64,000 nucleotides of DNA from Candidatus Levyibacteriota bacterium. Lineage in GTDB: Bacteria; Patescibacteriota; Microgenomatia; Levybacterales; UBA12049. The stretch lies in NCBI GenBank assembly GCA_027459725.1, contig DAIDHK010000002.1:105866-169865 (forward strand). Direction: 5' to 3'. Below the pieces are notes generated by a model, which was not told the DNA's origin, made no database searches, and saw only the letters and a program-made list of their open reading frames with translations. The position numbers and the translations under genes were made by a program. Each line of letters begins with the position of its first letter. The first letter of the stretch is position 1. This document shows positions 1,153 to 28,558 of the stretch, one piece after another.

Positions 1153-2028
1153 TTAAAATTTGATTGCTTTTTTGTAGCGGGAAACTAACTCCCGCTTCTG
1201 CAAAAGCATACCCATAAGTATAACAAAATAAGCTTTACTTAGCAGCAAGGATTTAGCAAAGTTATATTCTATACTGCTTTTATGTTTGCCGTAAAAGTAT
1301 AAAATGTTCTTATAAATATTCACTATAGCAAAAGTACGACTAGAACTACCCTGGTCCTGATGTATTATATCAACATCTGGGTAGAAAAGAACTTTATAGC
1401 CTTTTTCCTTTGCTCTAAAGCAAAATTCCATATCTTCCAGATACATAAAAATATGCTCATCAAATCCCCCCAGAGATATAAAAACATCCTTTCTAACCAT
1501 CATTAAAGCACCTTTTACCCAATCAACTTGCTTTATTTGTGAAGGACTTCTATCTATTAAACCAAATCTTTGTAAACCGAATAAAAACAATGATAAATTC
1601 CATAAATTATAAAATCTCCCGCTTGAACTTTGCAGAGTACCATCAGTATTTTTTAATTGACCTCCAAGAATCTTAACATTTTCATGGTTTTCAAGAAAGT
1701 TTAGCATTTCTTTTAATCCTTTTCTAACAAGTGTGTCATTATTTAAAAAGACTATCACTTTTCCATTTGCCTTTGTAACGCCTAAGTTATTACCGGCTCC
1801 GAATCCTCTATTTAGTTTGCTTTCTACTAATTGACAATTTGCATACTTTTTCTTTTTAATCTCTTTTTCAATCTGATTAACTGAATCATCCTGTGAAAAA
1901 TTATCTACTACAATCAATTCAAATTGATTATCTCTAAATTCATTACCGTAGATTTGATAAAGAGAATCGATACAATTCAGCGTTAACTGAGGTTTACGAA
2001 AATTAAGCGTAATAATAGAAAGTTGCAT
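1153..2028 (-). CDS. GT2-family glycosyltransferase (rhamnosyltransferase-like)
   Basis: ORF 1153..2055; start moved to ATG 2028 (MQLSIITLNF...) to avoid overlap with the upstream gene. Motifs VVDNFSQDDS, NRGFGAGNN and DMEFCFRA are typical of GT2. Confidence 0.8.
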   Translation of the reverse strand: MQLSIITLNFRKPQLTLNCIDSLYQIYGNEFRDNQFELIVVDNFSQDDSVNQIEKEIKKKKYANCQLVESKLNRGFGAGNNLGVTKANGKVIVFLNNDTLVRKGLKEMLNFLENHENVKILGGQLKNTDGTLQSSSGRFYNLWNLSLFLFGLQRFGLIDRSPSQIKQVDWVKGALMMVRKDVFISLGGFDEHIFMYLEDMEFCFRAKEKGYKVLFYPDVDIIHQDQGSSSRTFAIVNIYKNILYFYGKHKSSIEYNFAKSLLLSKAYFVILMGMLLQKRELVSRYKKAIKF

Positions 2029-2035
2029 AGAAGAT

Positions 2036-2641
2036 TTAACGAAACCAAGCAGCACGACCTAATTTGTAATGTAAGTCTTTGTTTTGTCTCTCCCCGATGA
2101 TTTTAGCAGGAACTCCTCCTACAATCGCAAAATCTGGTACATCTTTAGTAACCACAGCCCCTGCAGCTATAATCGCTCCTCGACCAATAGTCACTCCAGG
2201 TAAAATTATAACCCTTGGTCCAATAAACACATAATCTTTAATATCTACCTCCCCTTTAACTACACTATCCGCATCTGCAAAATGTTCAGCATTAATATTA
2301 TGCTCAGCATTGTAAATCATTACTTCAGAAGCAATATCCACATGATTACCGATAATTAATTTATCCCTACCATCTAGAATCGTACCTTCTCCGATAATTG
2401 TATCCTCACCTATAGTTATGTTACTAAGATTATAAAAACGAGCTAAAGTATGAATAGAAGATTCCTGGCCTATCTTCATTCCTCCTAATCGGTAGAAAAA
2501 CCTTCTAATATGATGAAAAGGTATATAGCCCACCCACATCTCCAGCATGTTACCTAACTCAATAAAAACAGCATTTAAACGATTTGTGGCTTTAGTCCGA
2601 ATCTCACTTCCTGATAATGATTTACCGGTTTTATCTTGCAT
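2036..2641 (-). CDS. Hexapeptide-repeat (left-handed beta-helix) sugar O-acetyltransferase
   Basis: Repeated [LIV]-G-x-x-x-x-I hexapeptides (IGEDTIIGEGTIL, IGNHVDIASEVMI, IGPRVIILPGVTIGRGAIIAAGAVV) followed by VPDFAIVGGVPAKIIG. Confidence 0.8.
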   Translation of the reverse strand: MQDKTGKSLSGSEIRTKATNRLNAVFIELGNMLEMWVGYIPFHHIRRFFYRLGGMKIGQESSIHTLARFYNLSNITIGEDTIIGEGTILDGRDKLIIGNHVDIASEVMIYNAEHNINAEHFADADSVVKGEVDIKDYVFIGPRVIILPGVTIGRGAIIAAGAVVTKDVPDFAIVGGVPAKIIGERQNKDLHYKLGRAAWFR

Positions 2642-2657
2642 ATTAATTTTATGATCT

Positions 2658-3791
2658 TTACTCCTTACCCCCTACTTGTTGCAAAATATCCAATGTCTGT
2701 GTAGCAGCTTTCTCCCAGCTAAATTTTAAAACCTGCTCGTGCCCCTTGGCAATCATTTTTTCTCTTAGCTTGTGATCAGTTAAAACCTTCTCAATTGTAC
2801 TCAAAATATCATCTACATTAAGAGGATCAAAATATAAAGCAGCATCGCCTCCTGCTTCAGGTAAACTACTGACATTACTTGTTATAACTGGACAATCATG
2901 TCTCATTGCTTCCAGAATAGGTAAACCAAATCCTTCATAAAGACTCGGATAAACAAACAATTGAGCATTTTTATATAATATATCCAAATCCTCATCACTA
3001 ACAAAATCTAAAAATTTTACTTCCTTCTCAACGTTAAATTTCTCTGGAGCTTCCAAAATATCTTCATATAACCAACCTTTTTTACCTACAATAATGAGCT
3101 GTAGGTCATGTTTTAAAGTTGCTTTGATCTTAGAGAATGCTTCAATTAAGCGAGATACATTTTTTCTCGGCTGGAGCGTACTAACGAATAATAAATATTT
3201 ATCTGCTAACTCATATTTACGCTGTACTTCCTGCCATTTATAAATATGCGGTTCAAGTGTTGACATGGTCTTTTTATGCCTTATACCTGGATAAATGACA
3301 ATCACCTTATCAGGGCTAAGTCCATATACCTTAAGTATATCAGATTTGCTCGCTTCGCTTATGGTAATGACCTTGGTTGCATTTTTCACAGAGTATTTAG
3401 TCCAATTTTGAAGTTGATAGAGATCCTTTTTAGCAAAATATTGTGAAAAGTGTATGAAAGCCAAATCCATAATTGATACAACGGTCGGACATAATGCAAG
3501 CCTAGGAGCATAATGTGAGGGCGTAAAAAAAACGTCAGGCTTAGACCTTTCAAGTAATAGCCGAGCCGGCAATGCAAATTGGGTCCACATTTTTTTAGGA
3601 CCAAACACTATATACTTCCAGGTGTCATTCGTTATAGGGAAATCAGAAGCAGGTTTATCTTTTAAATAGATATTAAACTTAGGTCTCGCAGACTGAATAA
3701 GAGCAAACTGATTGATTAACTCATAAGCAAATTCGCTTACTCCAACACGCCTTGTAACATTTGCCTCATTTCCATCAATTCCTATTAACAT
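2658..3791 (-). CDS. GT4 (GT-B, group-1) glycosyltransferase
   Basis: C-terminal EGFGLPILEAM motif and N-terminal MLIGIDGNEA. 377 aa. Confidence 0.85.
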   Translation of the reverse strand: MLIGIDGNEANVTRRVGVSEFAYELINQFALIQSARPKFNIYLKDKPASDFPITNDTWKYIVFGPKKMWTQFALPARLLLERSKPDVFFTPSHYAPRLALCPTVVSIMDLAFIHFSQYFAKKDLYQLQNWTKYSVKNATKVITISEASKSDILKVYGLSPDKVIVIYPGIRHKKTMSTLEPHIYKWQEVQRKYELADKYLLFVSTLQPRKNVSRLIEAFSKIKATLKHDLQLIIVGKKGWLYEDILEAPEKFNVEKEVKFLDFVSDEDLDILYKNAQLFVYPSLYEGFGLPILEAMRHDCPVITSNVSSLPEAGGDAALYFDPLNVDDILSTIEKVLTDHKLREKMIAKGHEQVLKFSWEKAATQTLDILQQVGGKE

Positions 3792-3793
3792 AT

Positions 3794-4333
3794 TTAATTA
3801 ATACCTGGATATACAACTGTTAACTTATCTTCCGCGATACCCAATAAATTCCTAGCATCTTTTTTAGTCGATTCCGAGATACAGATAAATTTACTATCCT
3901 CTTTAATGGCCCAACTTAATTTACGTTTTTGGGTTTGAACTATCTTATCATCTGTCTCATCCGGATTTGTATATACAACTAAATCATAAAGGATAGAAAT
4001 CTTTTTTGCTTTTAAACTTGGCGGTTCTGTCCAGTCTGAAGTTATAAAAACGTCTACATTTCCTATAAACCATTCCACCGGCATGATATGCAATCTATTC
4101 CAAAGTAAATCAAGCATACCTGGGGGTATCTTAAATTGTTTCAACAATACATTACTTTTCGAAATACTAACTTTAAGATTTGCCGAATGAACCGTATTTC
4201 TTAAGTTAGAAAAAAACAAAATATATTCATTGTTATTATCTTCATCGATTAAATGATTAACCAATTCTAAAAGATAATTAGCTACACCTGTATTCTTATA
4301 AACTAATTGACTAATATCAATCCCAATTTTCAT
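3794..4333 (-). CDS. Stand-alone GT4 N-terminal-domain ORF (179 aa), paralogous to the N-half of 2658..3791; possible duplication remnant
   Basis: MKIGIDISQLVYKNTGVANYLLELVNHL parallels MLIGIDGNEANVTRRVGVSEFAYELINQF. It ends ...KLTVVYPGIN, where the neighbour has VIVIYPGIRHK mid-protein. The C-terminal EX7E half is missing. Confidence 0.5.
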   Translation of the reverse strand: MKIGIDISQLVYKNTGVANYLLELVNHLIDEDNNNEYILFFSNLRNTVHSANLKVSISKSNVLLKQFKIPPGMLDLLWNRLHIMPVEWFIGNVDVFITSDWTEPPSLKAKKISILYDLVVYTNPDETDDKIVQTQKRKLSWAIKEDSKFICISESTKKDARNLLGIAEDKLTVVYPGIN

Positions 4334-4334
4334 A

Positions 4335-4556
4335 CTATTTCTCTTTCATAATCATATAAAGATGCACAATTACGGATACAAATAAGAAACCTACAGCATA
4401 TGACACGAGTCTCTCAGCAGTAAAAAAAATATGGGCTGCGAATAATGGAATACAGAAAACCAGGCTTAATAAGCCTGCATAAACCAACCAATTAGCCCTG
4501 GCTTTATATAACAGAACCAATAAAACAACTACAAAAACAATATCTTGAATCTTCAT
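4335..4556 (-). CDS. Small 2-TM membrane protein, translationally coupled to the upstream GtrB-like gene
   Basis: 73 aa and hydrophobic. Its start overlaps the stop of the 4556..5485 gene (TAATG). Confidence 0.4.
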   Translation of the reverse strand: MKIQDIVFVVVLLVLLYKARANWLVYAGLLSLVFCIPLFAAHIFFTAERLVSYAVGFLFVSVIVHLYMIMKEK

Positions 4557-5485
4557 TAAGCATCAGTAGAGAAACGCAACGGATGATGCGTAATTTCTTT
4601 GGCTGATGTGTTTATTATGAGGTCTGCCAAAAATCCAGTCAAGAAGGACTGTAGACCTGCTAATAGAAATAGCATCCCATATGTGAGGAGTGGTCTATCC
4701 CCAATTGTATAACCAATAAAATGCATAATTGACAAATAGATCAAAATGCCCAGACCTATAATAAATATGGCTCCTCCTAACATTCCAAAGAAGTGCATTG
4801 GTCTTTTGCTGTATTTATACAAAAAAAGCATCGTAAAAATATCTGGAAGATCTTTCCAGACTTTGGAAAAACCAAACTTAGATATGCCAAATTTTCTTTT
4901 GTCATGTTCTATAGCTACTTCTGTTACCTGAAAACCCTCCTGATAGGCCAGTAGTGGAATAAATCGATGAAATCCTCCGTATAATTTTAACGATTTTGCA
5001 CAATCTGATGTATATGCTTTAAGTCCACAATTGTAATCGTGTAATTGCAAACCCCAAAAATTACGAGCTAAGTAATTAAAAAACTTAGAAGATATGACTT
5101 TTCGTTGACTGTCTTTTCTTTTATAACGCCATCCACTAACCACATCCCACTTGTCTTGTTTAATTAATTTTAGCAATTTATTAATCTCACTCGGTCGGTC
5201 TTGCAAATCGGCATCCAAAGTTACTACAAACTCCCCCTTTGCTTTCTGGAAACCAAGTGTCAAAGCTTCTGCTTTACCTTGATTTTTACGAAAAGAAAAT
5301 ATTCTGATGGTTTTATCCTTTTTTGATATTTCTTTTAATAAGTTTAGAGATGAGTCAGTAGATCCATCATCGATAAAAACAATTTCACATACCTCTTTTG
5401 ATTTAAGAATTACTTTTTTCAGCTCCTTATAAAAAGGCTGCAAGCTCTCTTCTTCGTTATAAACCGGAACCACATAACTTATCAT
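4556..5485 (-). CDS. Polyprenyl-phosphate sugar synthase, GT2 with C-terminal TM pair (GtrB/ArnC/DPM1-like)
   Basis: VVPVYNEEESL, IDDGSTDSS and TLDADLQ GT2 core, plus two C-terminal TM helices (FFGMLGGAIFIIGLGILIYL; LLAGLQSFLTGFLADLII). Confidence 0.8.
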   Translation of the reverse strand: MISYVVPVYNEEESLQPFYKELKKVILKSKEVCEIVFIDDGSTDSSLNLLKEISKKDKTIRIFSFRKNQGKAEALTLGFQKAKGEFVVTLDADLQDRPSEINKLLKLIKQDKWDVVSGWRYKRKDSQRKVISSKFFNYLARNFWGLQLHDYNCGLKAYTSDCAKSLKLYGGFHRFIPLLAYQEGFQVTEVAIEHDKRKFGISKFGFSKVWKDLPDIFTMLFLYKYSKRPMHFFGMLGGAIFIIGLGILIYLSIMHFIGYTIGDRPLLTYGMLFLLAGLQSFLTGFLADLIINTSAKEITHHPLRFSTDA

Positions 5486-5554
5486 AGTCGTATTTTACCA
5501 TTCTTACAGGACAATGCCAAACGATAACAATAAAATCTGAAGCTCTGCTGAATA

Positions 5555-7642
5555 TTAACCTGGAATACGTCTTGTTTGATACGATCTAATGAATGAGTAG
5601 ATTAATAATATAATGATGGATATCAAACTGATCATACTTATGATAAGTCCTCTATCTACCCAAATTTGAGGGGTGTAATATACCATGTATTCGCCATTTC
5701 CTGAGATTATAAAACTGTTATACCGGGCATTATAAACTTTTGCATAAACGGATTGTTTATTAACTCCGATCAATTCCCAATGAGGATCATAATTCTCAGC
5801 AAAGACAAGCTTATCTCCTGGCAGACTATTGGTAATATTCACTTTATACTTTACCGGACTGATAAATTGAGATTGTATTGTTACTTTATCCGGTGACCAG
5901 AAGTGCTGTTTATATCCACTTAACTTAAATACCTTAATCTTGCCAAAGTCAGGCAAATCATGAAGCCATGAAATTTGGGCGATCTGAGCAATGGTCTGAT
6001 TATATATTGCAGCATCATACTTTCGATTATTCAGGAAAATTTCCCCTTCAGAATCATAAGGAACGATAATGTACTCAACTCCCGCCTCTTGTAACTGTTT
6101 CTCTGCCCCCACTGATTTAAGTTGATTTACGACTAGTGCAGGATTATAAACTTTATAAAAATCCTCGGCACTTATTTCAGGATGAGTATTTGAATAATAT
6201 CCAAAACGTTGGGGAACTGGCATCCATAAAGTCCTGGAATAATTATTTTGAGATGATAAATATTTCTGCAGTTTAATATAATCGTTGGGAACTGGTGTTG
6301 ATCTAAATGTACCACTCAACTGCCCCAGCAGGGCCGGCCGAATTAAAAACAACAGATACACAAATACAGCAAATAAAAATACATTTTGCAAATTAATAAA
6401 AGAAGATTTTGATTTTAATTGATATTTTAGATTTAAGATTTTTACTTTATTTTGACATTTCAGCCATTGGTACACCTGCCAGATGGTAAATGGTATAAGC
6501 ATTGAATATGAAATTGCCACTAATAAATACCATTTTGTTGGGTCACGAAACATTATGAATCCTGGAATGTGTGCAAACATCCAAAGATACACGAATCCAA
6601 ATGGATCATTGGCTCCTTTAGCAAGAAATGCCCCAATCAAAGCTAGAAGAGCAAAATAGAGGATATATAATTTTTGCTGTTTATTAATTCTCTTAAGAAA
6701 TAACAATGATGAAAATGCCAATATTGGCAACAATATAAATTCAGGTCTCATAAAATGAGTCAAACCGAATATATTTTCTGGCCAATTTGGATGAAGAAGA
6801 GAAATTGAATTTTCAATACGAGAAAAACTAAAGAACTTAACTGAGGTAAAGGAGGTATAAGCTGAACCAAACTGTTGTAGTGGATTTTGCTGATAAACTG
6901 CCATTGGTATTAACCAATAAGATTGAAGTAAAAAAACTGTAACACCTGGAACTATAGTAAATAATATAATTCTTTTTAGATAATCAAATACCCTAATTGA
7001 TTTATATTCTAAAATTTCATAACTTAAACATATAATAAAATAGAGATAAATTCCAACTAGAAGAATATAAGTAGTCCTTAGATCAAATATTAGTTCAAGA
7101 GAGACAAATAAGGAAAAGATAAGCAGATATTTTAAGTTATAATCCTCTACCATTCTGATGAAAGAATAGATAGTTAACGGAGTCAGGCTGTATGCAAGAC
7201 CAATCCCTGCAATTTGTCCTCCGGAAATTGTTAAAAGAATATATGTATTAAAAGAAAAGACTATAATACTGAACAACTTTATTATTACATTGTTAAATAC
7301 CTTATGTGTGAGTATTATGATTGAAATAAAAGACAAAAAAATAAATGGTAACCACCAAACTAATCGTTCAGAAATAGAAATATTTTTGTATAAAATAAAT
7401 CCTATCCAACCATAAACAAAATTTATCGGAGCTCCATGTAATAATCCTGTATTACTCCAACCCAGATTTATTTTATTTTCCCATGAAGCAAACGCATAAT
7501 TTTTAAAAAAATTTATTATTGATATAGGAAATGACTCATAATCACCTCCCGATATGGGATTATTAATAAATACTACTTTGTAAATTACTAAAAATAGAAT
7601 AAATACAGGAAAATAAACTATATAATTTTTAAATCTTTTCAT
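5555..7642 (-). CDS. Polytopic membrane protein with C-terminal extracytoplasmic domain (GT-C-like); paralog of the N-region of 7914..11435
   Basis: 695 aa with ~12 hydrophobic segments and then a soluble tail. ISGGDYESF...NLGWSNTGL is shared with SGEGGIQFGDY...GFSGTG of the 1173-aa neighbour. Confidence 0.55.
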   Translation of the reverse strand: MKRFKNYIVYFPVFILFLVIYKVVFINNPISGGDYESFPISIINFFKNYAFASWENKINLGWSNTGLLHGAPINFVYGWIGFILYKNISISERLVWWLPFIFLSFISIIILTHKVFNNVIIKLFSIIVFSFNTYILLTISGGQIAGIGLAYSLTPLTIYSFIRMVEDYNLKYLLIFSLFVSLELIFDLRTTYILLVGIYLYFIICLSYEILEYKSIRVFDYLKRIILFTIVPGVTVFLLQSYWLIPMAVYQQNPLQQFGSAYTSFTSVKFFSFSRIENSISLLHPNWPENIFGLTHFMRPEFILLPILAFSSLLFLKRINKQQKLYILYFALLALIGAFLAKGANDPFGFVYLWMFAHIPGFIMFRDPTKWYLLVAISYSMLIPFTIWQVYQWLKCQNKVKILNLKYQLKSKSSFINLQNVFLFAVFVYLLFLIRPALLGQLSGTFRSTPVPNDYIKLQKYLSSQNNYSRTLWMPVPQRFGYYSNTHPEISAEDFYKVYNPALVVNQLKSVGAEKQLQEAGVEYIIVPYDSEGEIFLNNRKYDAAIYNQTIAQIAQISWLHDLPDFGKIKVFKLSGYKQHFWSPDKVTIQSQFISPVKYKVNITNSLPGDKLVFAENYDPHWELIGVNKQSVYAKVYNARYNSFIISGNGEYMVYYTPQIWVDRGLIISMISLISIIILLIYSFIRSYQTRRIPG

Positions 7643-7907
7643 GACGAAAATCCTTAATAAAAGAAAATATTGCTGATATAGTCAACATTATAAAGGCAAT
7701 ATCCGCTAAATATCCTGCAATAATTTCGTTCTGGTATAGAATACCAAATGCACTTATAATGAGAAAAAATAGGGCTACTTTAATAAATAAGCCAATAATC
7801 TTTTTTACTCTAATCAATATACTTATCGCTACTAGCGTAAAGACTAACTCAAACAAATCCCAACCATATTTAGAGTAATAATAATATAATTCTATGTAAT
7901 AATGCAT
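7629..7907 (-). CDS. Small 3-TM membrane protein
   Basis: 92-aa hydrophobic ORF. It overlaps the start of 5555..7642 and sits between two large GT-C-like genes. Confidence 0.35.
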   Translation of the reverse strand: MHYYIELYYYYSKYGWDLFELVFTLVAISILIRVKKIIGLFIKVALFFLIISAFGILYQNEIIAGYLADIAFIMLTISAIFSFIKDFRHEKI

Positions 7908-7913
7908 ATATTA

Positions 7914-10900
7914 TCAGCGATTTTTCCTATATATTTTATTGATTATATACAATATTAATACTGAGGATAGTATAAATAAACTCAATTCGGAAACTTTTAT
8001 TCCAAACTCAAAATATTCTTGAGGATAAAACTCCAACATTAACATATAATTCCCTGTCTTATCTATCTTCCACGCATTAGCATAGCTGTTAACAAGTAAA
8101 TGATTGGAATCAGAAACAGGAATTTTTGTATTACCCTTGATGTAATACAAATGCCAAAGGGAATCATATGCCTCTAAAAATGCCAGATAATAAGGGGTTT
8201 TAGCATTCTTAATGTGTATGAAGTATCTTGCTGGGTTTTGTTCAGTATAAGTTACCTGAGGTTTTATTAATGGAACAGATATCGCATCATTTTTTACTAA
8301 AAAAATATCACCTAAATCAGTTCGCCTGAATGAAAGATTCTTTACTTCAATAACTGAAGGTATATCATATTCCTTGCTATAGGCTTTGTTAGCACATAGT
8401 TTTACAGATAATATATCCCTGGAATTATTACAATTATTACCCGGATATACATAAAACTCTATCTTGCCGGAATGTGATATATGCCTGGGAGAGATTTGAG
8501 TCTCATAATGATACCAATGATTTTTATTGCCCGTATAATTTAAATTAAGACTATAATGAGGTATAAGTTTATTATTCTCAGTTAAATCAGTGTCCTCGAC
8601 GAATGATAACTGGAAAGGATTTCCAGAATCTACCTTATAATCAAAGGACAGATCATAGTTACCATAAGAATCCAACTTTTTTACTTTGACAGTATATATC
8701 TTATCTAACATTCCCTTCCCCGAGTTGTTTTTTACAGTGGATATTATTAAGTTCCTCTGATTAATCAAATTTATACCCAATAACTTTTGAAGATTAATTT
8801 GATGTTCACCCTTGTTTATGTTAAACATTCCTATTGTGGTGAATTGTGTAGAAGACATGTTTACTTGAAATGGAACTTTATTGTCAATATTGCCGGTAAA
8901 TAAATCAGAATTATAATAATTAACATATCTTTTTGATGAAATGTATAAAGTATATTTACCACTCTGAGGAACACTTACATCATAAGCCTCAAATTTCTTA
9001 AGATCTACGGGCATATAAGGTTCGATTGATAATTTTTTTAGCATATTATTCAATAAATCATAAGTTGACTGGTATATGGGCTTCTTATCATTGTATAGTT
9101 TTATCATTTCAACGATATCAGACATTACATACTTTTGACGTAAAAGATCTTCCTCATAGTTATTTTGATTTACACTAGCTAGGTTTTGATTAATATATTT
9201 TAAAGACAGATTATAATCTTGTATTGCCTTATCTGATAATGCAACATTGTTGCCTTTCAATAATTTATATACTTCTACGACCCTTTTATCAGATTCATCT
9301 ATTTTATTGGCAAAATCACTATTTCCCTGAATGAAATCAATAAATGATTCTTTTGCTCGAGTAAAGAAATACATTGGCTGCCCGGGTAAATTACTTACAT
9401 AAGGAAGCTGAGATATAACATTTGTCTTATTTATACTCAGATTTGACGGTGTATATTTGACTGCCTGTAAAATAATTTGGTGACTCTGGTTTGAAACTTG
9501 CGTGAAGGATGCAGGGTGTGTGAAATATAAGTCATTTTTTTTGTAATCTGCTAAGGGTACCGAAGTAATAAAAGACTCAGGTCCTAGTGATATAATCCCT
9601 TGATTAGCAGCAAATATCTTTGGAGTTGAATATTGCGGGTTTCCCTGATAGAAAGTCAATAAACCGAATTGTGAGACTTTCTTAATATAATTTGCAGCAT
9701 TAAGCTCCTTTTCAATATCTTGGGGGTTTTGCATTTGATCTGATTTATAGTTAGTATCTCTTCGAAGCATGATATATCTTACGTCGAGTGGGGGTAATAT
9801 TTTCCATAAATCATCAGGATATAGAGAAGTTAAAGGTTCGATATCTTTAGTAAGTCCACATAAATATTGTATGCTGGTACAATACGATATAAAGGACTGA
9901 TCGAATATACCGTTTGACAATTCAACTCCTCTATATCCATATTTCCAGTCATATGTAATACCCTCACCCCCAAGTGGAAGCGCAATCACTCGAAAATCAT
10001 CAGGTTTCTGACTGTTTAACCATTTACTGGCAGTGGAATAATAGCTTGGAACCTTGACTTTATACCCTATTCTGGGATTATTACTTGGAGGTATATAGCC
10101 TTCAAAAACTCCACCAGTCCAGATCGGAATGCAGAGAATAACAAAGCATATAATGCATATTATGATAACTAATAATATTGCCTTTATAGATGAATAGTTT
10201 CTTTTTATAAAATAAAAAAGACCAAATAAACCGAAAGCAAATAGTATAGAATAAAAAGTTGGCAAAATAAGCATTATTTTTTCGAATGGATTTCTGAAAC
10301 CTTCCATGATTCTAAAATGAGTAAATAAGAAGAGAAAAATACCACCAAAGGGATCAGCAATTCCTTTAGCCGCGAAAATCGTGAATAATGAAGCTAAGAG
10401 AAAGAAATAATAATAATGTGATTTTCTCTTAATTAATAAACTACCAAATACTATTAGAGGAGGTATAAATGTAAGTATAATAATCGGCCAACTTTGATAA
10501 TAGTAATTCCATACACCTTCCATCCATATATAAAAATCATGATGCATTAGTCTAAACACGAACGATAGGTTGCCTAATGAAGAACTTAATGCTGAGAGTG
10601 TATAATAGTCATTTGAGGAATTATACGCGGTTTGGGTCAGGTAAGGGGAGTTGGGAATTACAACCAACAATGAAATTAACCACCAACTATTGACACATAT
10701 CCACATTACCATACTTACAATTAAGAACTTTAAAATAAAAAATAAAGTTTGTCTGTTCCGCTCTTCAAATAAGTAATAATAACCAGAAAAGGCAAAAATA
10801 ATACCCCAATAATTAATTATCTCAGGCATTGATGCATACGCCATGGCAAGTAAAAAGCCTGATAAAACTAGTATCACAGAATATATAAGTTTTTTGGCTT

Positions 10901-11435
10901 CTATTGCACGTATAATTATATAAAGTGTTAAAGGGTAAAGGGCATAGAAGAATAAATAAGGGGTTTGAAACCTATTTAATATCAGTACCATTGTCACCTG
11001 ATTAAAAAGATAAAAAAATGATGCTGTTATACTTAAAAATAATCTATTGGATTGATTATATTTCGCGAATACATGTTGTGCCAGATGGTAAATAGACAAA
11101 AATCCCGTCAATAACAGAATAAAGAAAGTACTTGCCTCTATAATCACGCTGGGAATGTAAAGATTATGAACAATAAATATAGTTAATATAAATGGCAAAC
11201 TAGTTTGTGTAATACCAGTGCCCGAAAAACCAATTGTACTAGGAAACCATGATTGTCCAAATAAATTTATAAGAGTCTTATAGTCTCCAAATTGTATCCC
11301 TCCTTCCCCAGACGCCATTATATACCCAGAATGAAACCATATAGTTATTAAAATAAATATTAAAAAAAAGCTTAAAATAAAGCTGGTCACATTGGGATGT
11401 TCTTTATAAAATTTAATAAATTCTGGAGCTAACAT
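7914..11435 (-). CDS. Giant (1173 aa) GT-C-like membrane protein: ~430-aa multi-TM N-domain plus ~700-aa extracytoplasmic domain
   Basis: Long ORF. The N-terminus is rich in TM helices. The C-terminal ~700 aa is hydrophilic, rich in N/Y/S/T, and ends in a single TM (FILSSVLILYIINKI). Confidence 0.6.
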   Translation of the reverse strand: MLAPEFIKFYKEHPNVTSFILSFFLIFILITIWFHSGYIMASGEGGIQFGDYKTLINLFGQSWFPSTIGFSGTGITQTSLPFILTIFIVHNLYIPSVIIEASTFFILLLTGFLSIYHLAQHVFAKYNQSNRLFLSITASFFYLFNQVTMVLILNRFQTPYLFFYALYPLTLYIIIRAIEAKKLIYSVILVLSGFLLAMAYASMPEIINYWGIIFAFSGYYYLFEERNRQTLFFILKFLIVSMVMWICVNSWWLISLLVVIPNSPYLTQTAYNSSNDYYTLSALSSSLGNLSFVFRLMHHDFYIWMEGVWNYYYQSWPIIILTFIPPLIVFGSLLIKRKSHYYYFFLLASLFTIFAAKGIADPFGGIFLFLFTHFRIMEGFRNPFEKIMLILPTFYSILFAFGLFGLFYFIKRNYSSIKAILLVIIICIICFVILCIPIWTGGVFEGYIPPSNNPRIGYKVKVPSYYSTASKWLNSQKPDDFRVIALPLGGEGITYDWKYGYRGVELSNGIFDQSFISYCTSIQYLCGLTKDIEPLTSLYPDDLWKILPPLDVRYIMLRRDTNYKSDQMQNPQDIEKELNAANYIKKVSQFGLLTFYQGNPQYSTPKIFAANQGIISLGPESFITSVPLADYKKNDLYFTHPASFTQVSNQSHQIILQAVKYTPSNLSINKTNVISQLPYVSNLPGQPMYFFTRAKESFIDFIQGNSDFANKIDESDKRVVEVYKLLKGNNVALSDKAIQDYNLSLKYINQNLASVNQNNYEEDLLRQKYVMSDIVEMIKLYNDKKPIYQSTYDLLNNMLKKLSIEPYMPVDLKKFEAYDVSVPQSGKYTLYISSKRYVNYYNSDLFTGNIDNKVPFQVNMSSTQFTTIGMFNINKGEHQINLQKLLGINLINQRNLIISTVKNNSGKGMLDKIYTVKVKKLDSYGNYDLSFDYKVDSGNPFQLSFVEDTDLTENNKLIPHYSLNLNYTGNKNHWYHYETQISPRHISHSGKIEFYVYPGNNCNNSRDILSVKLCANKAYSKEYDIPSVIEVKNLSFRRTDLGDIFLVKNDAISVPLIKPQVTYTEQNPARYFIHIKNAKTPYYLAFLEAYDSLWHLYYIKGNTKIPVSDSNHLLVNSYANAWKIDKTGNYMLMLEFYPQEYFEFGIKVSELSLFILSSVLILYIINKIYRKNR

Positions 11436-11599
11436 ATTAATAAACTGTACTACCTAATCTGATATTGGTAGTTTACTCTTCTTGTGATAGTTGAAATACA
11501 AACCCATTAGAATTTTGTTATATGTATGCCATTTGGTGAATAGTGATACTCAATTTGTATTCACAATATAATTTTTAATGAAACTAAATATATAAAATA

Positions 11600-12262
11600 T
11601 TAATCTCTAATATCTTTCATTGCAAACATATATATTGCATTTTCGGGTTTATACATTAATAATGGTTGAAATAACATTGATATCAAAAAAAGTATGTTAG
11701 AAAATATACCATATTTAACCACAACATTTTCTTCCTTATATAGAACTCTAAGTCCTTGACCAGTTACCATATATCCCTTTTCTCGTAGGTCTTTAGGATA
11801 CCATTGTGATTTATGTGCCTGATGTTGATTCCCATCATATTCTTCCTGATGCAGATATCCAATTGGCATTGCTAAAACTACTCTTTTTTTTGCAATTTTT
11901 TCCAGCTTCCTTATTAAGTCATCTCCCTCTTTCTTAGTTAAATGCTCTATAACATGAAAACAAATCACTACATCGAAAGATTTTTCTTTAAAGGGTAATT
12001 TCCTAATATCTGAATTAATCAACTTTGTATAGACATTTTTTAATTTACATTCCTTAAGATATGGATCGTAAATGTCTACACCTGTAGCTGTATATAACTT
12101 TTTATAGTTTATGATTTCCATGGGTAATCCGGTTCCACACCCAACATCTAGAATTGTCTTGAAATTGTTACCTACCATAGATCTGAGGATACCATTATAT
12201 GTAAGAGGAAAATACGATAAAAATAATTCCCATTTTCCAATCTTTTTATTAAACATGCCCAT
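11600..12262 (-). CDS. Class I SAM-dependent methyltransferase
   Basis: ILDVGCGTGLP motif I and VIEHLTKKE. Confidence 0.8.
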   Translation of the reverse strand: MGMFNKKIGKWELFLSYFPLTYNGILRSMVGNNFKTILDVGCGTGLPMEIINYKKLYTATGVDIYDPYLKECKLKNVYTKLINSDIRKLPFKEKSFDVVICFHVIEHLTKKEGDDLIRKLEKIAKKRVVLAMPIGYLHQEEYDGNQHQAHKSQWYPKDLREKGYMVTGQGLRVLYKEENVVVKYGIFSNILFLISMLFQPLLMYKPENAIYMFAMKDIRD

Positions 12263-12265
12263 AAG

Positions 12266-13306
12266 TTAGATTAATTTCGTATGAATATAGTAATTATTAT
12301 ATATATACAGTAACGATTTGCGCATTAAAATTATATCAAATAGCTGTTTATCATTGTATACACGATTTCTATTTATTAAACTTCTTTTATGAAGAATAGA
12401 TGGAAAATACAAAAATACCCATACAACTCCTTTTAGAGTTCCCGCAAGTGCAGATAATTTGTGTCTTTTTATTAATACTATAAATGATCTAGCAAATGAT
12501 ATTGTTAAACTATAAAAAAAGTAATAAATAGCATTATTCAGTTCATAATTTTTAGAGATGCTTATTAACGAATTTTTTGTTAAGTGAAAATAAATAACTT
12601 CTTCGTTGTGTTTCATATTTTCTCTCATATTTACTGATTTAGTCCAATGATAAACCACAGCTTTTGGAGCTCTTACAACTCGGTATCCTGCAATCCAGAT
12701 TCGCCAACAGAAGTCCAAATCCTCGGTCACAACTGCTTCCATTTCATCAAATCCATCTATCTTCTCAAAAATCTTTTTCTTAACAGCCAACGCAGCTGAA
12801 ATACCTACTATATCATCCTCAAAATCATATTGTCCTTTATCAATCTCCCATTGGCCAATTGGTAAACCCCATGCTGTAGCTGCCCACAACTTAACACCAA
12901 TATTCTGAAACTTATTCCTCATTTTAAAATCTAACAGTTTTGCCTGACAGGCTCCAACTCTCTCATTTGAACGTAATACTTTAATCATCTGATTTAACCA
13001 GAATTTATCTACCTCTGTATCATTATCAAGAAAAATTAATAAATCTCCACTGGCATATCTTACTGCCTTATTTCGACTTGCAGCTGCGCCTATATTTCGT
13101 TCATTTTCAATTAAATTAATTCTTTTATCTATTGCACAATATTTTTTTATGATTGTGATACTATCATCATCGGAACCATCGTCTACTAAAATTAATTCGT
13201 AATTTTTGTAATCTGAAGCTAAAACTGATTTTAAACATTTTGAAAGATATTTTTCTCCATTATAATTGGCAATAATAATAGAAACTGTTTGCTTTTTTCT
13301 ACTCAT
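12266..13306 (-). CDS. GT2-family glycosyltransferase
   Basis: VSIIIANYNGEKYL, LVDDGSDDDS and FLDNDTE. Confidence 0.8.
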   Translation of the reverse strand: MSRKKQTVSIIIANYNGEKYLSKCLKSVLASDYKNYELILVDDGSDDDSITIIKKYCAIDKRINLIENERNIGAAASRNKAVRYASGDLLIFLDNDTEVDKFWLNQMIKVLRSNERVGACQAKLLDFKMRNKFQNIGVKLWAATAWGLPIGQWEIDKGQYDFEDDIVGISAALAVKKKIFEKIDGFDEMEAVVTEDLDFCWRIWIAGYRVVRAPKAVVYHWTKSVNMRENMKHNEEVIYFHLTKNSLISISKNYELNNAIYYFFYSLTISFARSFIVLIKRHKLSALAGTLKGVVWVFLYFPSILHKRSLINRNRVYNDKQLFDIILMRKSLLYIYNNYYIHTKLI

Positions 13307-13923
13307 ATAGATTTAACAGCTATCAAGTATGCACTTATACTAGGATAATAATATTGAAATGGAGCAAGAATATATGAGAGTGTAAACCATATGGGATTTA
13401 ATTTAGGTAATTTGTGTGCCAAACCCCATGGTTTATATATAATTCCAGTTCCTTGTCCACATACTTTATAATGAAAACTCTTGAATTCATCCACTTCCCA
13501 TCCACATTTATGTACCTGAAGTGGATTATTATCTCTACCTTGAAGTGGATGATATGGGAAATAACCATTTGTGGTTCCAATTATGACTTTTTTTATAGCC
13601 AGTGATTCCATTACTTTTATAAGTTTTAATGCCTCTTTTTTTGTTAAGTGCTCTACCACCTGAGATGACAAAACTACATCGTATTTATTTCCTTGTTTTT
13701 GGAGATTCCTGACATCCCCAAGCATTACCTTTTTATAGACTCCAGTTTTTTTTGCCAAATTTAAATAGGGTTTATAAAGATCAATTCCAGTCACATCGTA
13801 TTTTTTATCGAAATTAATAGTTGCCATTGTAACTCCATCACCACATCCCACATCAAGAATAGTTTTAGCATTAGCGAGTTCTTTTCGTATAATCCAACTA
13901 TATGAAAAAGGTATAATATTCAT
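13303..13923 (-). CDS. Class I SAM-dependent methyltransferase (paralog of 11600..12262)
   Basis: ILDVGCGDGV and VVEHLTKKEA, collinear with the 220-aa MTase. Confidence 0.8.
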   Translation of the reverse strand: MNIIPFSYSWIIRKELANAKTILDVGCGDGVTMATINFDKKYDVTGIDLYKPYLNLAKKTGVYKKVMLGDVRNLQKQGNKYDVVLSSQVVEHLTKKEALKLIKVMESLAIKKVIIGTTNGYFPYHPLQGRDNNPLQVHKCGWEVDEFKSFHYKVCGQGTGIIYKPWGLAHKLPKLNPIWFTLSYILAPFQYYYPSISAYLIAVKSI

Positions 13924-13925
13924 TA

Positions 13926-14807
13926 TTATGTAGCTTTAAATCCATTTATGACTCCCTTAGAATAATTAATGATTGCACATGGAGTCTTATATTTTATTGC
14001 TAGCATTATATAATAGAAAAAATATAATGGAATAAATAAAAGAAATATTACAAATGATTGAGCGTACCTGCTCATAAAAATAATTCTATTTCTTCCAACC
14101 CAATATGCTCTATTTAAAAGTCGCTTATTGGCTAAATCTTCATCATAGGGAATATGATGATATGCAATAGCCTTGGGTGTATAAAAGGTGATAAATCCAT
14201 ACTTTTTTGCCTTAAAACAAAAATCTGTATCCTCATAGGTTGCAAAGTATATTTCATCAAAACCATCTATTTTTTTCAGTGTTTCTTTTTTAACCAAAAG
14301 AACAGCTGGAGCTACAGAAACCTGTCTCTCAATTTCATATTGGCCAGTATCTTTGCCACCATAAAATATAGTCTTACCAGTCCATAAGTTAACATCAGTT
14401 CCTGCTGACCATATAATATTCTTCTTATCCCAAAAATAAATCTTAGGGGTTACTATACCAATTTTGCTACTTGATTCAAGGCATTTTACCATTATCTCAA
14501 CCATATCTTTGTTAGCAACCATATCATGATCGAAAAAAAGTATGTAATCTCCTTTCACATACTTGATTCCTGTGTTTCTACCCCCTGTGACACCTTCATT
14601 TATATTATTCTTTATAAGATTCACTTTTTTAATTAATGATCTATGGATATAACTCATTACTGCCTTATCGGTTCCATCTGTTGATGCATTATCTACAATT
14701 ATAATTTCATGTACTGGATATGTTTGATTGAGAAGAGAAACAATCCCTTCTATTAGATATTTTTTTTGATTATAAGTTGGAATAATAACAGAAACTTTCT
14801 TATTCAT
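13926..14807 (-). CDS. GT2-family glycosyltransferase
   Basis: VSVIIPTYNQKKYL, IVDNASTDGT and FFDHDMV. Confidence 0.8.
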   Translation of the reverse strand: MNKKVSVIIPTYNQKKYLIEGIVSLLNQTYPVHEIIIVDNASTDGTDKAVMSYIHRSLIKKVNLIKNNINEGVTGGRNTGIKYVKGDYILFFDHDMVANKDMVEIMVKCLESSSKIGIVTPKIYFWDKKNIIWSAGTDVNLWTGKTIFYGGKDTGQYEIERQVSVAPAVLLVKKETLKKIDGFDEIYFATYEDTDFCFKAKKYGFITFYTPKAIAYHHIPYDEDLANKRLLNRAYWVGRNRIIFMSRYAQSFVIFLLFIPLYFFYYIMLAIKYKTPCAIINYSKGVINGFKAT

Positions 14808-15999
14808 AGAGTATTTGTAAAGCTACTTTCGCTCGTTTTTCCCAATCCCAATAGTCATTAATTAATTTTAATGCTTTTTTCTTCTCAGAAATATATAGTT
14901 TTTTTTGAGACAATAAGCGTATAACAATTAGAGCAAATTCTTTGTTGTTATGCAATGGAGATTTAAGCATGCCGATAGGATAGTATGTCTTAAGTGCTTC
15001 TAAATCGAAAGATACTCCTGGAAGTCCCCATGCCATAGCCTCTGCAGCTGCCATTCCTCCACTATCATAAATAGCTGGATGCACCACGATCCTACTTTTT
15101 GCAAAAATACTATATTTTTTAATACCATCTAAAAGGTATCCTGTAAGTATGATATTTTTTTCTAACCCGTATTTTTGTATTTTTTCTTTTACATATTCCA
15201 TAAGGGATCCATCACCAATCATAATAAGTTTTGCATTTGGTATACTCTTAACTACTATTTTCCAAATATCTATAATTTCAAGTACACCCTTTTGAGGGTG
15301 GAATCTGCCCATAAATACTGCGTCATATTCTTTTGCTACTCTTCCGATTTGATTTTGGAACTTAGCCACAATTTGCAAGTCTACACCACCTTTAATAACG
15401 ATAACTTTACTTTTTTTATGTTGATTTGGAAAACGTTTAACATCTGGTTCAGATGTAACGAATATTGTTTGAGAAAAAAAACGTAGTATCCAATATATCG
15501 GAAGTTGCATCAACCAATATATTATACCTTTTGCTGAGGGTAAACACCATTTTCCACCTTCGTTATATCCTTTAAATGGATTTGGTGCAGCTAAATAAAA
15601 TGTCCCCGCCCATATTACATTTGCATATCGTATTTTAAGAATTAACGATGGGATAACATCCATCCAGAAATCAGAAGCGCTATAGATAACACACTTTGAC
15701 GAGTTAGAAAGGGAATATGACAATGACCATAATATACCCTCCCAAACTCTAACAAAATATGAAAATGCCAATGATGACGTGTCTAATAAATCAAGATGTA
15801 AATTTACATATTTAAGATATGGTGAAGTGTTGAGATGAGTTCTATTACACATTCTAGCACCAGCTTTCCATGTAACTATATCAGTATGAATTTTCTGCAT
15901 AGCAGCATATCTAGCAAGCTCAATAAAAATTCTATCACCTCCTGATAAACCATCTCCTACAGGAGATATAGCAATTATTAATAACTTCTTATTGTTCAT
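14800..15999 (-). CDS. GT4-type (GT-B) glycosyltransferase
   Basis: 399 aa. The C-terminal half carries a GT-B nucleotide-sugar binding-like region (FMGRFHPQKGV...IMIGDGS...). Confidence 0.65.
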   Translation of the reverse strand: MNNKKLLIIAISPVGDGLSGGDRIFIELARYAAMQKIHTDIVTWKAGARMCNRTHLNTSPYLKYVNLHLDLLDTSSLAFSYFVRVWEGILWSLSYSLSNSSKCVIYSASDFWMDVIPSLILKIRYANVIWAGTFYLAAPNPFKGYNEGGKWCLPSAKGIIYWLMQLPIYWILRFFSQTIFVTSEPDVKRFPNQHKKSKVIVIKGGVDLQIVAKFQNQIGRVAKEYDAVFMGRFHPQKGVLEIIDIWKIVVKSIPNAKLIMIGDGSLMEYVKEKIQKYGLEKNIILTGYLLDGIKKYSIFAKSRIVVHPAIYDSGGMAAAEAMAWGLPGVSFDLEALKTYYPIGMLKSPLHNNKEFALIVIRLLSQKKLYISEKKKALKLINDYWDWEKRAKVALQILYE

Positions 16000-17743
16000 G
16001 TAATTTAACTTTATGTAAAATCCTGTTCTTATCGTCTATAAATGTATCATTTGACAGTAGCCTTAAATAAATAATTTTATTTTTGTCTGCTTTTTTAATT
16101 TTGTGAGTATATAACTTTAAACTTTTTCCATTAGAAATCGCAGAACCTAACTGATCTAAGTTAAGAATAATAAAGGGTAAATTATTTGTATCTGATATTC
16201 CATATGATAATCCCATATAAAATGGAAATCCGAATGTGTAAACAGATGAATTAAGCCCGGTATTATCTGTAATATAGAAAATTGTAGGATAATCTTTAGG
16301 AAGTTTTGGGATTATTTTGTGTAACGATGTAAAGATAATTGCTTGCCTTTGCTCACTACGAAATTGCAACTGTCCCCTAAAATAAATAGTATCACTAATA
16401 ATATTAGTAAATACTACAACAACTAAAAACCCAATTACAAACAATTTCAAATGTCTATTTCTCATAAGTATTGATACTATCACTATCCCAGAACTAATCA
16501 CTCCCAATACTGGAAAATATAAATATCTGTGATCAGAAGTAAAAACAGCAGTAGGATCAAAAATCCATGGCAATAGATAGTATGGCAAACTAAAGCAAAT
16601 AATAAATAAAAAAAGTATCAATATTAGTAATTTGTTTTTTTTATATAATACATAATAGACAATATTAACTACTATCCAAAGTCCGAATGCCGTAGATAAT
16701 CTTTCTTTTGAATTTGTTAAGTTAAAAAAGTATTGTACTAGTGGAATAACTGATATATTAACAAAACTCCATATTATAATATTTTTCATTGTTACTTTGT
16801 TCCATAATCCATAACCAAGACCTAATATTAAAATTATTAAAATATAGTATATTATGTGCAATTGTAAAATCATAGGAAAATATTTATGAATTTTAGAAAA
16901 TAACATATCAGGAAACAGAATATTGCCCAGATCAATGAAAGGAACATAAATGAAAGAATAGTTATGGTGTAATATAAGAGAGTAGCCGATCTTAATACCG
17001 TTTTGTATATAAGATAATACATCAGTTGTAGGACCTAAACTCCCCAATAATTTGGCAGTAATATAAATAAAAATTGATCCAATCAATTGAATTAAAGCAA
17101 GCTTTCTTTTAGTCTCTTTTTGCCAAATTATTTTAATAAAAGACAATATAACCAAGGTAAAGAAAAACCCATAGCTTCTTACAGGAATTATAAAAATAAA
17201 CAACGCATAAAATAGAAATATATATAGCTGATTTTTAAAAGTCGGTTTATCTTCTATTAAAAGTAGATAATAAAATGCTAAACCCAAAAATATAATTGCC
17301 AAGTAAGTATTCATATAGAATACCCAATCTGTCACCTGTATTCCTATAGGAGTTGTCGCGATAATTATTGTTCCAGCCCATCCCAAGAATGTAGATTTAG
17401 TAAGTTTACTTAGAGGGAAATAAAACGAAACTGAGCCAATAATTCTTAATATTAAAGAGGTAAGGAAATACCCAACTGGATTATAACCCCAAAAGAGTCT
17501 GATAAAATAAAGTATAGGATACTGAAAATTGTATGGACCCAAATAAGACCAAATCGAGAAATATGACATCTTATATCCAGTATCAAACATGTAACGAAGC
17601 ACATATAATCTCAGCCAATCATCTCCATATAAAGATAATTTCAGACTCAAACCATAACCAAATGAAGTTAATAACACAGTTAGAATAAAGCCAATAATGA
17701 ATACATGTGACTTAAAATAAGATCTTATATTCTTTTTTTTCAT
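15989..17743 (-). CDS. Polytopic membrane protein, GT-C-like (ArnT/GT39-like?)
   Basis: 584 aa with >12 hydrophobic segments. N-terminal loop LYGDDWLRLY. Confidence 0.5.
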   Translation of the reverse strand: MKKKNIRSYFKSHVFIIGFILTVLLTSFGYGLSLKLSLYGDDWLRLYVLRYMFDTGYKMSYFSIWSYLGPYNFQYPILYFIRLFWGYNPVGYFLTSLILRIIGSVSFYFPLSKLTKSTFLGWAGTIIIATTPIGIQVTDWVFYMNTYLAIIFLGLAFYYLLLIEDKPTFKNQLYIFLFYALFIFIIPVRSYGFFFTLVILSFIKIIWQKETKRKLALIQLIGSIFIYITAKLLGSLGPTTDVLSYIQNGIKIGYSLILHHNYSFIYVPFIDLGNILFPDMLFSKIHKYFPMILQLHIIYYILIILILGLGYGLWNKVTMKNIIIWSFVNISVIPLVQYFFNLTNSKERLSTAFGLWIVVNIVYYVLYKKNKLLILILFLFIICFSLPYYLLPWIFDPTAVFTSDHRYLYFPVLGVISSGIVIVSILMRNRHLKLFVIGFLVVVVFTNIISDTIYFRGQLQFRSEQRQAIIFTSLHKIIPKLPKDYPTIFYITDNTGLNSSVYTFGFPFYMGLSYGISDTNNLPFIILNLDQLGSAISNGKSLKLYTHKIKKADKNKIIYLRLLSNDTFIDDKNRILHKVKLHEQ

Positions 17744-17753
17744 TTCTTGAGAA

Positions 17754-24692: not shown

Positions 24693-24699
24693 AACTAAG

Positions 24700-25668: not shown

Positions 25669-25674
25669 AATATC

Positions 25675-25689
25675 CTTATTGTAGCAAAT
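25675..25689 (-). promoter_or_regulatory. Extended -10 promoter element TGCTACAAT 9 nt upstream of the galE ATG
   Basis: Minus-strand ATTTGCTACAATAAG. The identical 15-mer recurs at 43300..43314 upstream of another operon head. A CTGACA -35-like hexamer lies 17 bp upstream. Confidence 0.4.
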
Positions 25690-25777
25690 ATAATTATAGA
25701 TGTCAGGATAAAGTGAGTTGGTTTAGTCCAACCTTGTATAACAATAATCTGGCTGGTAGTATATATAAATATCTGAG

Positions 25778-27268: not shown

Positions 27269-27700
27269 CAAAAATGAATAGTAACTTTTCCCTGTTTGCC
27301 AAAGTAAAACAAAAAATAGTAATGAAAGTGAAGCAAACAGAGCCACGAAGGAATGCTGCATTAGAATTGTTGAACTATCTATTAACTGTGGAGAAAAAAC
27401 AGACAGGATTAACATTATTAGAAATCCCAATCTCCCGCTTTAACGAAAACCTATTAAAGACAGGACAACTAAGGTAGATACAGCACATATTCCTAATATA
27501 ATCCATGGTCCATAAAAAGTAGGGAAAATTACAAGTCCAAGCATAATTGACCATAAATAAACAGGCCCGAAAACAAAAGGCCCAGCTGAGCTGAAAGAAC
27601 CAATAAGTGGGATTGAATGTCTCATTATTGCTTCTTTAGCAATTGATAAGTCACGTCCGTTATCAACACCTATTTGAATTCAGTAAAGAAAGTTATCTAA
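27230..27700 (-). pseudogene. Frameshifted, decayed inverted copy of the N-terminal region of a family-A membrane protein
   Basis: Minus-strand fragments IGVDNGRDLSIAKEAIMRHSIPLIGSFSSAGPFVFGPVYLWSIML... (preceded by a TGA) and, in another frame, ILSVFSPQLIDSSTILMQHSFVALFASLSL. They parallel residues ~45-160 of 25778..27268. Confidence 0.45.
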
Positions 27701-28557: not shown

Positions 28558-28558
28558 C

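Follow-up and report, generated by a model that had tools for sequence, protein, structure and literature searches.

The DNA analysed here, which we call the window, is a 64-kb stretch of a 205-kb contig (DAIDHK010000002.1) from a Candidatus Levyibacteriota bacterium, a metagenome-assembled genome (MAG) of the Patescibacteria. Positions 5555..11435 of its minus strand hold three closely spaced open reading frames (ORFs): a gene for a putative AftD-like glycosyltransferase of the GT-C fold, 1173 amino acids (aa) long (7914..11435), an ORF for a small membrane protein of 92 aa with three hydrophobic segments (7629..7907), and a gene for a 695-aa paralog of the first protein (5555..7642). Both long genes start with ATG, and we refer to the three products as the large, mini and small proteins. 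The mini ORF begins 6 nucleotides (nt) past the large stop codon, and its last 14 nt are shared with the beginning of the small gene; it looks translationally coupled to both. An earlier note, made from the sequence alone, had delimited the two long ORFs exactly; the mini ORF between them was overlooked. The window has a G+C content of about 32%, and its composition shows no break at the locus. A promoter scan returned 47 sites, against 50.9 +/- 8.4 in shuffled sequence, and is uninformative on operon boundaries.

The large and small proteins are real paralogs, with similarity far above chance. In a BLASTP comparison, 415 residues of the N-terminal part align at 27% identity (E 3e-15). A second segment pairs the last ~160 residues of each, 1016-1173 of the large protein with 539-692 of the small (E 1e-4). 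An hhalign comparison of the two family profiles, with 53 sequences each, gives a probability of 99.9% and an E-value of 9.6e-37 over 567 columns. The common N-terminal domain with multiple transmembrane (TM) helices that the earlier note had proposed is thus borne out, and so is the conserved SG..GWS/GFSGTG loop within it, which in the large protein reads SGEGG..W..IGFSGTG (residues 42-75) and in the small SGGD..W..LGWSNTG (residues 31-66). Position 44 of the large family is E in 40 of the 53 homologs and D in 12, with a gap in the remaining one, so that it is acidic in 52 of 53, while position 34 of the small family is D in 53 of 53. The two residues are paired by hhalign, and their codons, at 11304..11306 for E44 and 7541..7543 for D34, both on the minus strand, were checked. 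Each residue lies in the first outside loop directly after TM1, which is where GT-C enzymes as a rule carry a conserved acidic residue, shortly after TM1 in the first extracytoplasmic loop (PMC11127046). Because of this rule, and because D41 of AftD is essential, we regard E44 and D34 as candidate catalytic bases. In our reading of the models and of the conservation, both proteins start with 11 TM helices, go on with an alpha/beta domain and a last beta-sandwich on the outside, and close with one TM helix and a basic tail; the small protein has a basic N-terminus too. The 11 + 1 helices, the basic C-terminal tails and the basic N-terminus of the small protein together place all the conserved loops outside, and the most conserved positions of both proteins are all in outside loops.

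In the large protein, all of whose segments are encoded on the minus strand, residues 1-435 (10131..11435) form a membrane domain of 11 TM helices, the GT-C core, where the assignment of helices is a reading of the model helices together with the hydrophobic segments. The outside loop between TM9 and TM10, residues 357-386 (10278..10367, sequence checked), carries the motifs KG..PFG and FRNPFEK; G358, R381, N382, E385 and K386 are invariant in it, and K357, P383 and F384 are at least 90% conserved. The loop is a candidate phosphate-binding site. Residues 436-680 (9396..10130) are an extracytoplasmic mixed alpha/beta domain, the soluble domain of the GT-C fold, which is common to the small protein according to the secondary structure of the model and to hhalign, whose alignment reaches residue 641. 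Its motif LPLGGEGITYxW belongs to a region in which P487, W497 and G503 are invariant and E491 is at least 90% conserved. Two modules with no counterpart in the small protein follow. The first, residues 681-805 (9021..9395), is a helical-bundle insertion with five long helices in the model (residues 689-801) and a weak match to PF18915 DUF5667 over residues 683-760 (E 0.049). The second, residues 806-1005 (8421..9020), is a beta-sandwich like a carbohydrate-binding module (CBM), so that the large protein has a module of the kind carried by the AftD family. Residues 1006-1137 (8025..8420) make up the last beta-sandwich, with conserved H1112, N1116, N1120 and W1122, which is homologous to residues ~586-657 of the small protein by the second BLASTP segment and the model. 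The closing TM helix (TM12) and a basic cytoplasmic tail occupy residues 1138-1173 (7917..8024; helix 1138-1172 in the model), and the sequence ends ...LILYIINKIYRKNR.

The small protein, likewise on the minus strand, is best conserved in a long outside loop between TM7 and TM8, residues 251-303 (6734..6892), in which S272, F273, L282, P285, W287, N290, F292, G293 and F297 are invariant or at least 90% conserved. Residues 273-298 are the sole part of its model with a predicted local distance difference test score (pLDDT) below 50, although they lie in this best-conserved stretch. The loop may be a mobile, substrate-gated one like EL4 of AftD, and presumably EL5 of PglB is a second analogue. 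A further outside loop, residues 342-370 (6533..6619, sequence checked), carries KGANDPFG and FRDPTK and is paired by hhalign with residues 357-386 of the large protein; K342, G343, R366 and K370 are invariant. The remainder, residues 441-695 (5558..6322, sequence checked), comprises an outside alpha/beta domain (441-585), a beta-sandwich (586-657) and the closing TM helix (658-695), as placed from the model and from homology to the large protein. The conserved outside motif RTLWxPxxQRF stands alongside the LPLGGEGITYxW of the large type. The earlier note had seen the outside domain with its terminal TM anchor as an addition peculiar to the large protein. The domain and the anchor are both there, but the small protein has its own extracytoplasmic domain of ~220 aa and its own anchor, and the ~480 extra aa of the large protein, the helical bundle and the CBM-like sandwich, form an insertion, not an appendage: they come after the alpha/beta domain and before the last sandwich and TM helix, all of which both proteins have in common. 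The same note had called the outside domain rich in N, Y, S and T; this holds for N, at 9.1% against 4.9% in the membrane proteins of the window, and slightly for Y and S, but T is not enriched.

AlphaFold2 models of both proteins were built from the family alignments and have a pLDDT of 90.1 and a predicted TM-score (pTM) of 0.85 for the large protein, and 87.7 and 0.88 for the small. In a Foldseek search with the large model, AftD comes first (6w98_A, E 7.5e-16, TM-score 0.47 on query length) and the catalytic subunits of oligosaccharyltransferases follow. The best structural matches of the small model are AftA (21.8), AftD (20.4, 546 residues aligned), STT3B (20.3), AglB (19.4) and Pmt4 (19.2), and there is no protein of other than GT-C type among the first 21. 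The arrangement of the helices in both models is thus that of the GT-C superfamily. The AftD-type likeness that had been proposed from the architecture, with a comparison of AlphaFold models as the way to check it, stands up well, with only GT-C glycosyltransferases at the top. A transporter or protease fold of the N-terminal domain, which would have spoken against it, is not found near the top of the structural matches. Some matches in the PDB at sequence level, to GlpG rhomboid, pilin and fibroin (E 0.1-1), were set aside as noise from TM segments or composition.

At the level of families, the large protein matches the Pfam family PF11847 (GT-C_AftD) with 18.4 bits (E 5.7e-4), below the gathering threshold of 26 bits. 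Relatives do pass this threshold: one of them, P0045, scores 35.6 bits and carries the NCBI product name 'alpha-(1->3)-arabinofuranosyltransferase family protein', and 10 of the 38 members of a class of ~735-aa paralogs also lie above it. The relatives that pass match the large protein at E-values near 1e-91. The small protein has no Pfam match. Its only match to a curated model is to NF053599 MmpA (E 6.1e-7), with 28.4 bits against a cut-off of 210 and over residues 303-473 only. Within its family, 4 of the 53 sequences have weak PF11847 matches (best E 2.4e-5) and single members match YfhO or PTPS_related. Because the large protein falls below PF11847 while its relatives rise above it, it is placed, on the strength of this homology chain, as a fringe member of the AftD superfamily, and the small lineage as an uncurated sister branch that is large and well conserved in Patescibacteria. 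The ~735-aa class was considered as a source of orthologs of the 695-aa protein and rejected, as its members score much higher against the large protein; paralogs of ~950 aa exist as well, and the large type often occurs in tandem copies.

At E <= 1e-3 the databases contain 125 relatives of the large protein; the named ones are from Patescibacteria MAGs, including Daviesbacteria, and many have a precomputed PF11847 match. With one genome scanned per species, 57 loci were found, in MAGs of Daviesbacteria, Woesebacteria, Amesbacteria, Microgenomates and unclassified Patescibacteria. For the small protein there are more than 1,065 matches, and the 120 listed among them have 41-55% identity. In a search of 1.84 billion representatives of clusters at 50% identity, the profile of the small family finds 8,053 at E <= 1e-3 and 1,798 at E <= 1e-30; paralogs of other types are to be expected among the weaker matches. 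More than 30 MAG contigs with the gene pair found in MAGs of Daviesbacteria and Woesebacteria bear the title 'uncultured Gammaproteobacteria bacterium', which looks like a placeholder or a wrong taxonomy. The suggestion in the earlier note that the proteins may represent an undescribed GT-C family survives only in part and is not supported in the form given. The large protein has its sub-threshold PF11847 match, its relatives that pass and the NCBI name of one of them; the small lineage has no curated model. A search of the literature found no paper on GT-C enzymes in Patescibacteria or on arabinofuranosyltransferases in the candidate phyla radiation. What is new, then, are divergent AftD-like members in Patescibacteria that lack the module binding acyl carrier protein (ACP), the 695-aa lineage that curated models leave uncovered, and the synteny of both lineages across Microgenomates-type genomes. 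The kind of enzyme, an AftD-like GT-C protein, is already known, with a Pfam family and an NCBI product name, and what we describe is a divergent branch of it.

The two genes travel together. A full-length gene of the large type was found at 38 genome loci. At 30 of them a small-type paralog follows downstream, on the same strand and no more than ~6 kb away, and of the 8 other loci 6 break off within 3 kb. A counterpart of the mini protein, of 92-113 aa, lies directly 3' of the large gene in all four of the nearest relatives' loci examined and is confined to the nearest clade; a search of 5.8 billion proteins found 5 such proteins only, and the mini protein has no Pfam match. It was considered as a GtrA-type flippase and rejected, since it matches no such family, has about three hydrophobic segments and has only 5 relatives. 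On the other side, 69 nt downstream of the small gene, lies a gene for a 309-aa glycosyltransferase of family GT2 (4556..5485, minus strand; PF00535, E 7.7e-34) of the ArnC/GtrB/PgfS type, that is, a polyprenyl-phosphate sugar synthase. It matches NF007986 ArnC at full length (residues 2-290 against 8-293 of 316, E 4.6e-44), and also PgfS at full length (E 6.3e-36), both below the equivalog cut-off, and its two C-terminal hydrophobic helices give it the architecture of such synthases. Copies with 59-66% identity are found in the four corresponding clusters of the nearest relatives. A hairpin resembling a terminator, 3' of the GT2 gene at 4477-4461, is a match to the consensus only. We take this GT2 to be the likely supplier of a lipid-linked donor, and its presence next to the pair, retained in the clusters of the relatives, lends indirect support to a polyprenyl-phosphate-linked sugar as the probable donor. 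Wzx-like flippases and numerous GT2 and GT4 genes in the surrounding island fit such a supply.

These features suggest how the system might work. At the cytoplasmic face of the membrane, the ArnC/GtrB-like GT2 would attach a sugar to polyprenyl phosphate, and the lipid-linked sugar would be flipped to the outside. There, the active site of each GT-C enzyme would be carried by its 11 TM helices at the outer face of the membrane and would hold the phosphate of the donor by the basic residues of the TM9-TM10 loop, K357, R381 and K386 in the large protein and K342, R366 and K370 in the small. E44 or D34 would activate a hydroxyl of the acceptor for attack on the anomeric carbon, while the long conserved TM7-TM8 loop may close over the substrates. 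The helical bundle and the CBM-like sandwich of the large protein could hold an extended polysaccharide acceptor above the membrane, a role that has been proposed for the CBMs of AftD. The conserved order of the genes, large then small, suggests that the two enzymes act in succession on one cell-envelope glycan, possibly in a complex with the mini protein.

We conclude, with a probability of about three in four, that the large and small proteins, as paralogs, both belong to the AftD-like lineage of integral-membrane GT-C glycosyltransferases, and that they would use polyprenyl-phosphate sugars and modify a glycan of the cell surface. Several points weigh against this conclusion. Neither protein of the window reaches the threshold of a curated family in Pfam or NCBIfam, and the best curated match of the small one, MmpA, is to a protein with no known catalytic activity. 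Searches of the PDB by sequence, with both single proteins and with profiles of the large type (A1), the small type (A2) and the ~735-aa class (A3), found no solved structure, AftD included, so that what ties the pair to AftD is the predicted structures and the homology chain. In AftD, K39, D41, E251, K361 and D474 are essential. Judged by where they lie and how well they are conserved, E44/D34 and K357/K342 are plausible counterparts, to which the large family alone adds E491. E491, the acid of the soluble domain in the large family, falls opposite Q478 of the small family in hhalign, which means that the two active sites differ. No flippase could be singled out for the donor, and for the members of these Patescibacteria lineages no enzyme activity, donor or acceptor is on record.

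The structural matches of the small protein raise the question of whether the acceptor is a glycan at all, since oligosaccharyltransferases and protein O-mannosyltransferases (PMTs) score nearly as well for it as the arabinofuranosyltransferases do. Both enzymes could accordingly glycosylate proteins, such as surface-layer (S-layer) proteins, pilins or other surface proteins, in the manner of STT3, PglB, AglB or the PMTs. For the large protein, however, AftD is clearly the best match, over 699 residues, and its CBM-like module fits a glycan acceptor. The adjacent GT2 would make a single sugar linked through a monophosphate, which is not a donor of the oligosaccharyltransferase type. The WWDxG motif marks oligosaccharyltransferases; no motif of this type is seen in the outside domains, where LPLGGEGITYxW and RTLWxPxxQRF are conserved instead. 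We consider protein glycosylation unlikely. The top structural matches, AftD and AftA, and the NCBI name of a relative could also be taken at face value, so that the proteins would be true arabinofuranosyltransferases, which use decaprenyl-phospho-arabinofuranose or another polyprenyl-phospho-pentofuranose to build a polymer like arabinan; three-component pentofuranose systems are indeed widespread (PMC11127046). We see only a slim chance of this. Among the window ORFs scanned, which cover 64 kb of the 205-kb contig, there is no gene for a UbiA-type phosphoribosyltransferase and none like DprE1/DprE2, and the neighbouring enzyme that would form the donor belongs to the ArnC/GtrB type, whose substrates are nucleotide sugars. 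Moreover, the TM13-16 module of AftD that binds ACP is absent, and the sugar cannot be predicted from similarity of the GT-C fold.

The MmpA match of the small protein, its only one to a curated model, would suit a reading in which one or both proteins are inactive members of the GT-C fold that serve as membrane scaffolds or lipid-delivery factors, a role proposed for MmpA (Rv0226c/NCgl2761), an AftD-related protein required for the transport of trehalose lipids. MmpA is reported to be partly homologous to the N-terminal portion of AftD and lacks a recognised catalytic domain (PMC8698533). The match is far below the cut-off, at 28 against 210 bits, and is limited to residues 303-473, whereas D34 is invariant in all 53 homologs, the outside loops are the best-conserved parts, as an active site would be, and the gene for the donor-forming GT2 is linked in four clusters. 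The chance that the proteins are inactive is in our view slimmer still. Beyond the reading of the pair as glycosyltransferases of a surface glycan, we tentatively suggest, as a possibility that may well prove wrong, that the large protein, the small protein and the polyprenyl-phosphate sugar synthase, joined in the nearest clade by the mini protein, make up a conserved module which is peculiar to Patescibacteria of the Microgenomates type and builds or decorates an undescribed polysaccharide of the cell envelope. On this suggestion the 695-aa lineage, unusually well conserved at 42-55% identity and with no fewer than 1,798 clusters, would be a core envelope enzyme of the phylum and a distinct GT-C family, and the paralogs might form a heterocomplex like EmbA-EmbB or Pmt1-Pmt2.

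The pair lies in an island of glycosylation genes, 1153..58832 (~58 kb), in which nearly every gene is on the minus strand. The island holds ~15 GT2 and ~8 GT1/GT4 glycosyltransferases, four methyltransferases, one sugar epimerase/dehydratase, a hexapeptide acyltransferase and two Wzx-type flippases (22370..23638 and 46635..48086). It is unusually dense in GT-C genes, with ~18 polytopic proteins that either resemble GT-C enzymes or are candidates (PMT_2, PTPS_related, YfhO, GT87 and several without a Pfam match). They include three tandem paralogs of the PMT_2 type, of 558, 548 and 572 aa and 33-35% identical (33260..38299, minus strand), a fourth copy 27-30% identical to these three (52133..53836, minus strand) and a tandem PTPS_related pair (48783..52129). 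Five polytopic proteins, with 7-12 hydrophobic segments, have no Pfam match at the thresholds used (15989..17743, 30021..31553, 31516..33258 and 44114..45742 on the minus strand; 25778..27268 on the plus strand), and those at 15989..17743 and 25778..27268 have no NCBIfam match at E <= 1e-5 either. A 584-aa protein in the cluster of a relative corresponds to the ORF at 15989..17743. These five may be further divergent GT-C enzymes, or polymerases or ligases of glycans. Just beyond the island lie a gene for tRNA-Glu(CTC) (58950..59023, plus strand) and then a gene for an AAA_14/DUF4143 ATPase (59310..60497, plus strand).

Two relatives have two genes for NAD-dependent sugar epimerases/dehydratases between the large and mini genes and the small-type gene (locus L003, 13718..15837; locus L061, 9824..11958), which hints that the donor is a modified sugar, for example a deoxy sugar. 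The sole epimerase/dehydratase seen in the window is 13 kb off (24700..25668). A 179-aa ORF (3794..4333, minus strand) has an N-terminal GT4 domain only and is followed by a two-domain GT4 protein of 377 aa (2658..3791, minus strand); it may be a split or accessory GT4. The arrangement is repeated, as 177 aa and 375 aa, in the nearest relative (locus L002, 12820..14455).

Patescibacteria are uncultured, tiny and often episymbiotic, and next to nothing is known about their envelope chemistry. An AftD-like pair within an island of ~58 kb with ~18 GT-C-like proteins points to an elaborate surface glycan that is assembled outside the cytoplasm, and such a glycan is likely to matter for attachment to the host and for evading recognition. 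Current Pfam and NCBIfam models miss the 695-aa lineage; with a curated model, well over a thousand proteins now annotated as hypothetical could be given a name.

Several known systems share parts of this organization. YfhO (PF09586) and PTPS_related (PF10131) proteins also have an N-terminal TM bundle, an outside domain and a C-terminal TM helix, but the pair matches neither of these models, and true YfhO and PTPS_related genes are found elsewhere in the window. Pairing with a polyprenyl-phosphate sugar synthase of the GtrB/ArnC type is a feature of the Gtr, CsbB-YfhO and ArnC-ArnT systems as well. The Gtr systems differ in their flippase: none recognisable as GtrA-type is present here, and the mini protein has about three TM segments, not four. 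From STT3, PglB and AglB the pair differs in that neither protein has a Pfam STT3 match, in its lack of a WWDxG-type motif and in the type of donor that is implied. MmpA, the trehalose lipid delivery protein of Corynebacterineae (PMC8698533), is, like the small protein, an AftD-related polytopic protein with one outside domain near its C-terminus. It is shorter, however (~474 aa), lacks recognised catalytic residues and has its role in the export of mycolate lipids, and the small protein falls far short of its cut-off. We know of no export of mycolate lipids in Patescibacteria.

The closest known systems are the arabinofuranosyltransferases. AftA, the galactan 5-O-arabinofuranosyltransferase (PDB 8IF8), is the top structural match of the small protein. 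AftD of Mycobacteria (PDB 6W98, 6WBX and 6WBY; PF11847, formerly DUF3367) has the same TM1-11, outside alpha/beta GT-C domain with sandwich or CBM, and re-entry TM12, where our helix count is read from the models, and an acid placed early in the first outside loop, D41 against E44 and D34. The differences are considerable. Identity is ~10-14% in the structural alignments, and there is no match to the AftD chain at the level of sequence, even by profiles. The proteins of the window lack the TM13-16 bundle that binds ACP, both ending 35-38 residues after the start of TM12. AftD has three CBMs and a beta-sandwich, whereas here there are one or two beta-sandwiches, joined in the large protein by a helical bundle. 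The donor enzyme linked to the pair resembles ArnC and does not belong to the decaprenyl-phospho-arabinofuranose (DPA) pathway. To our knowledge, neither arabinogalactan nor lipoarabinomannan occurs in Patescibacteria. Homologs of AftD were described, in the AftD paper, across Actinobacteria only, while the host here is a Patescibacteria MAG. The pair does not overturn current understanding; it fills in a known kind of enzyme, extending the AftD architecture beyond Actinobacteria in a minimal version without the ACP-binding module.

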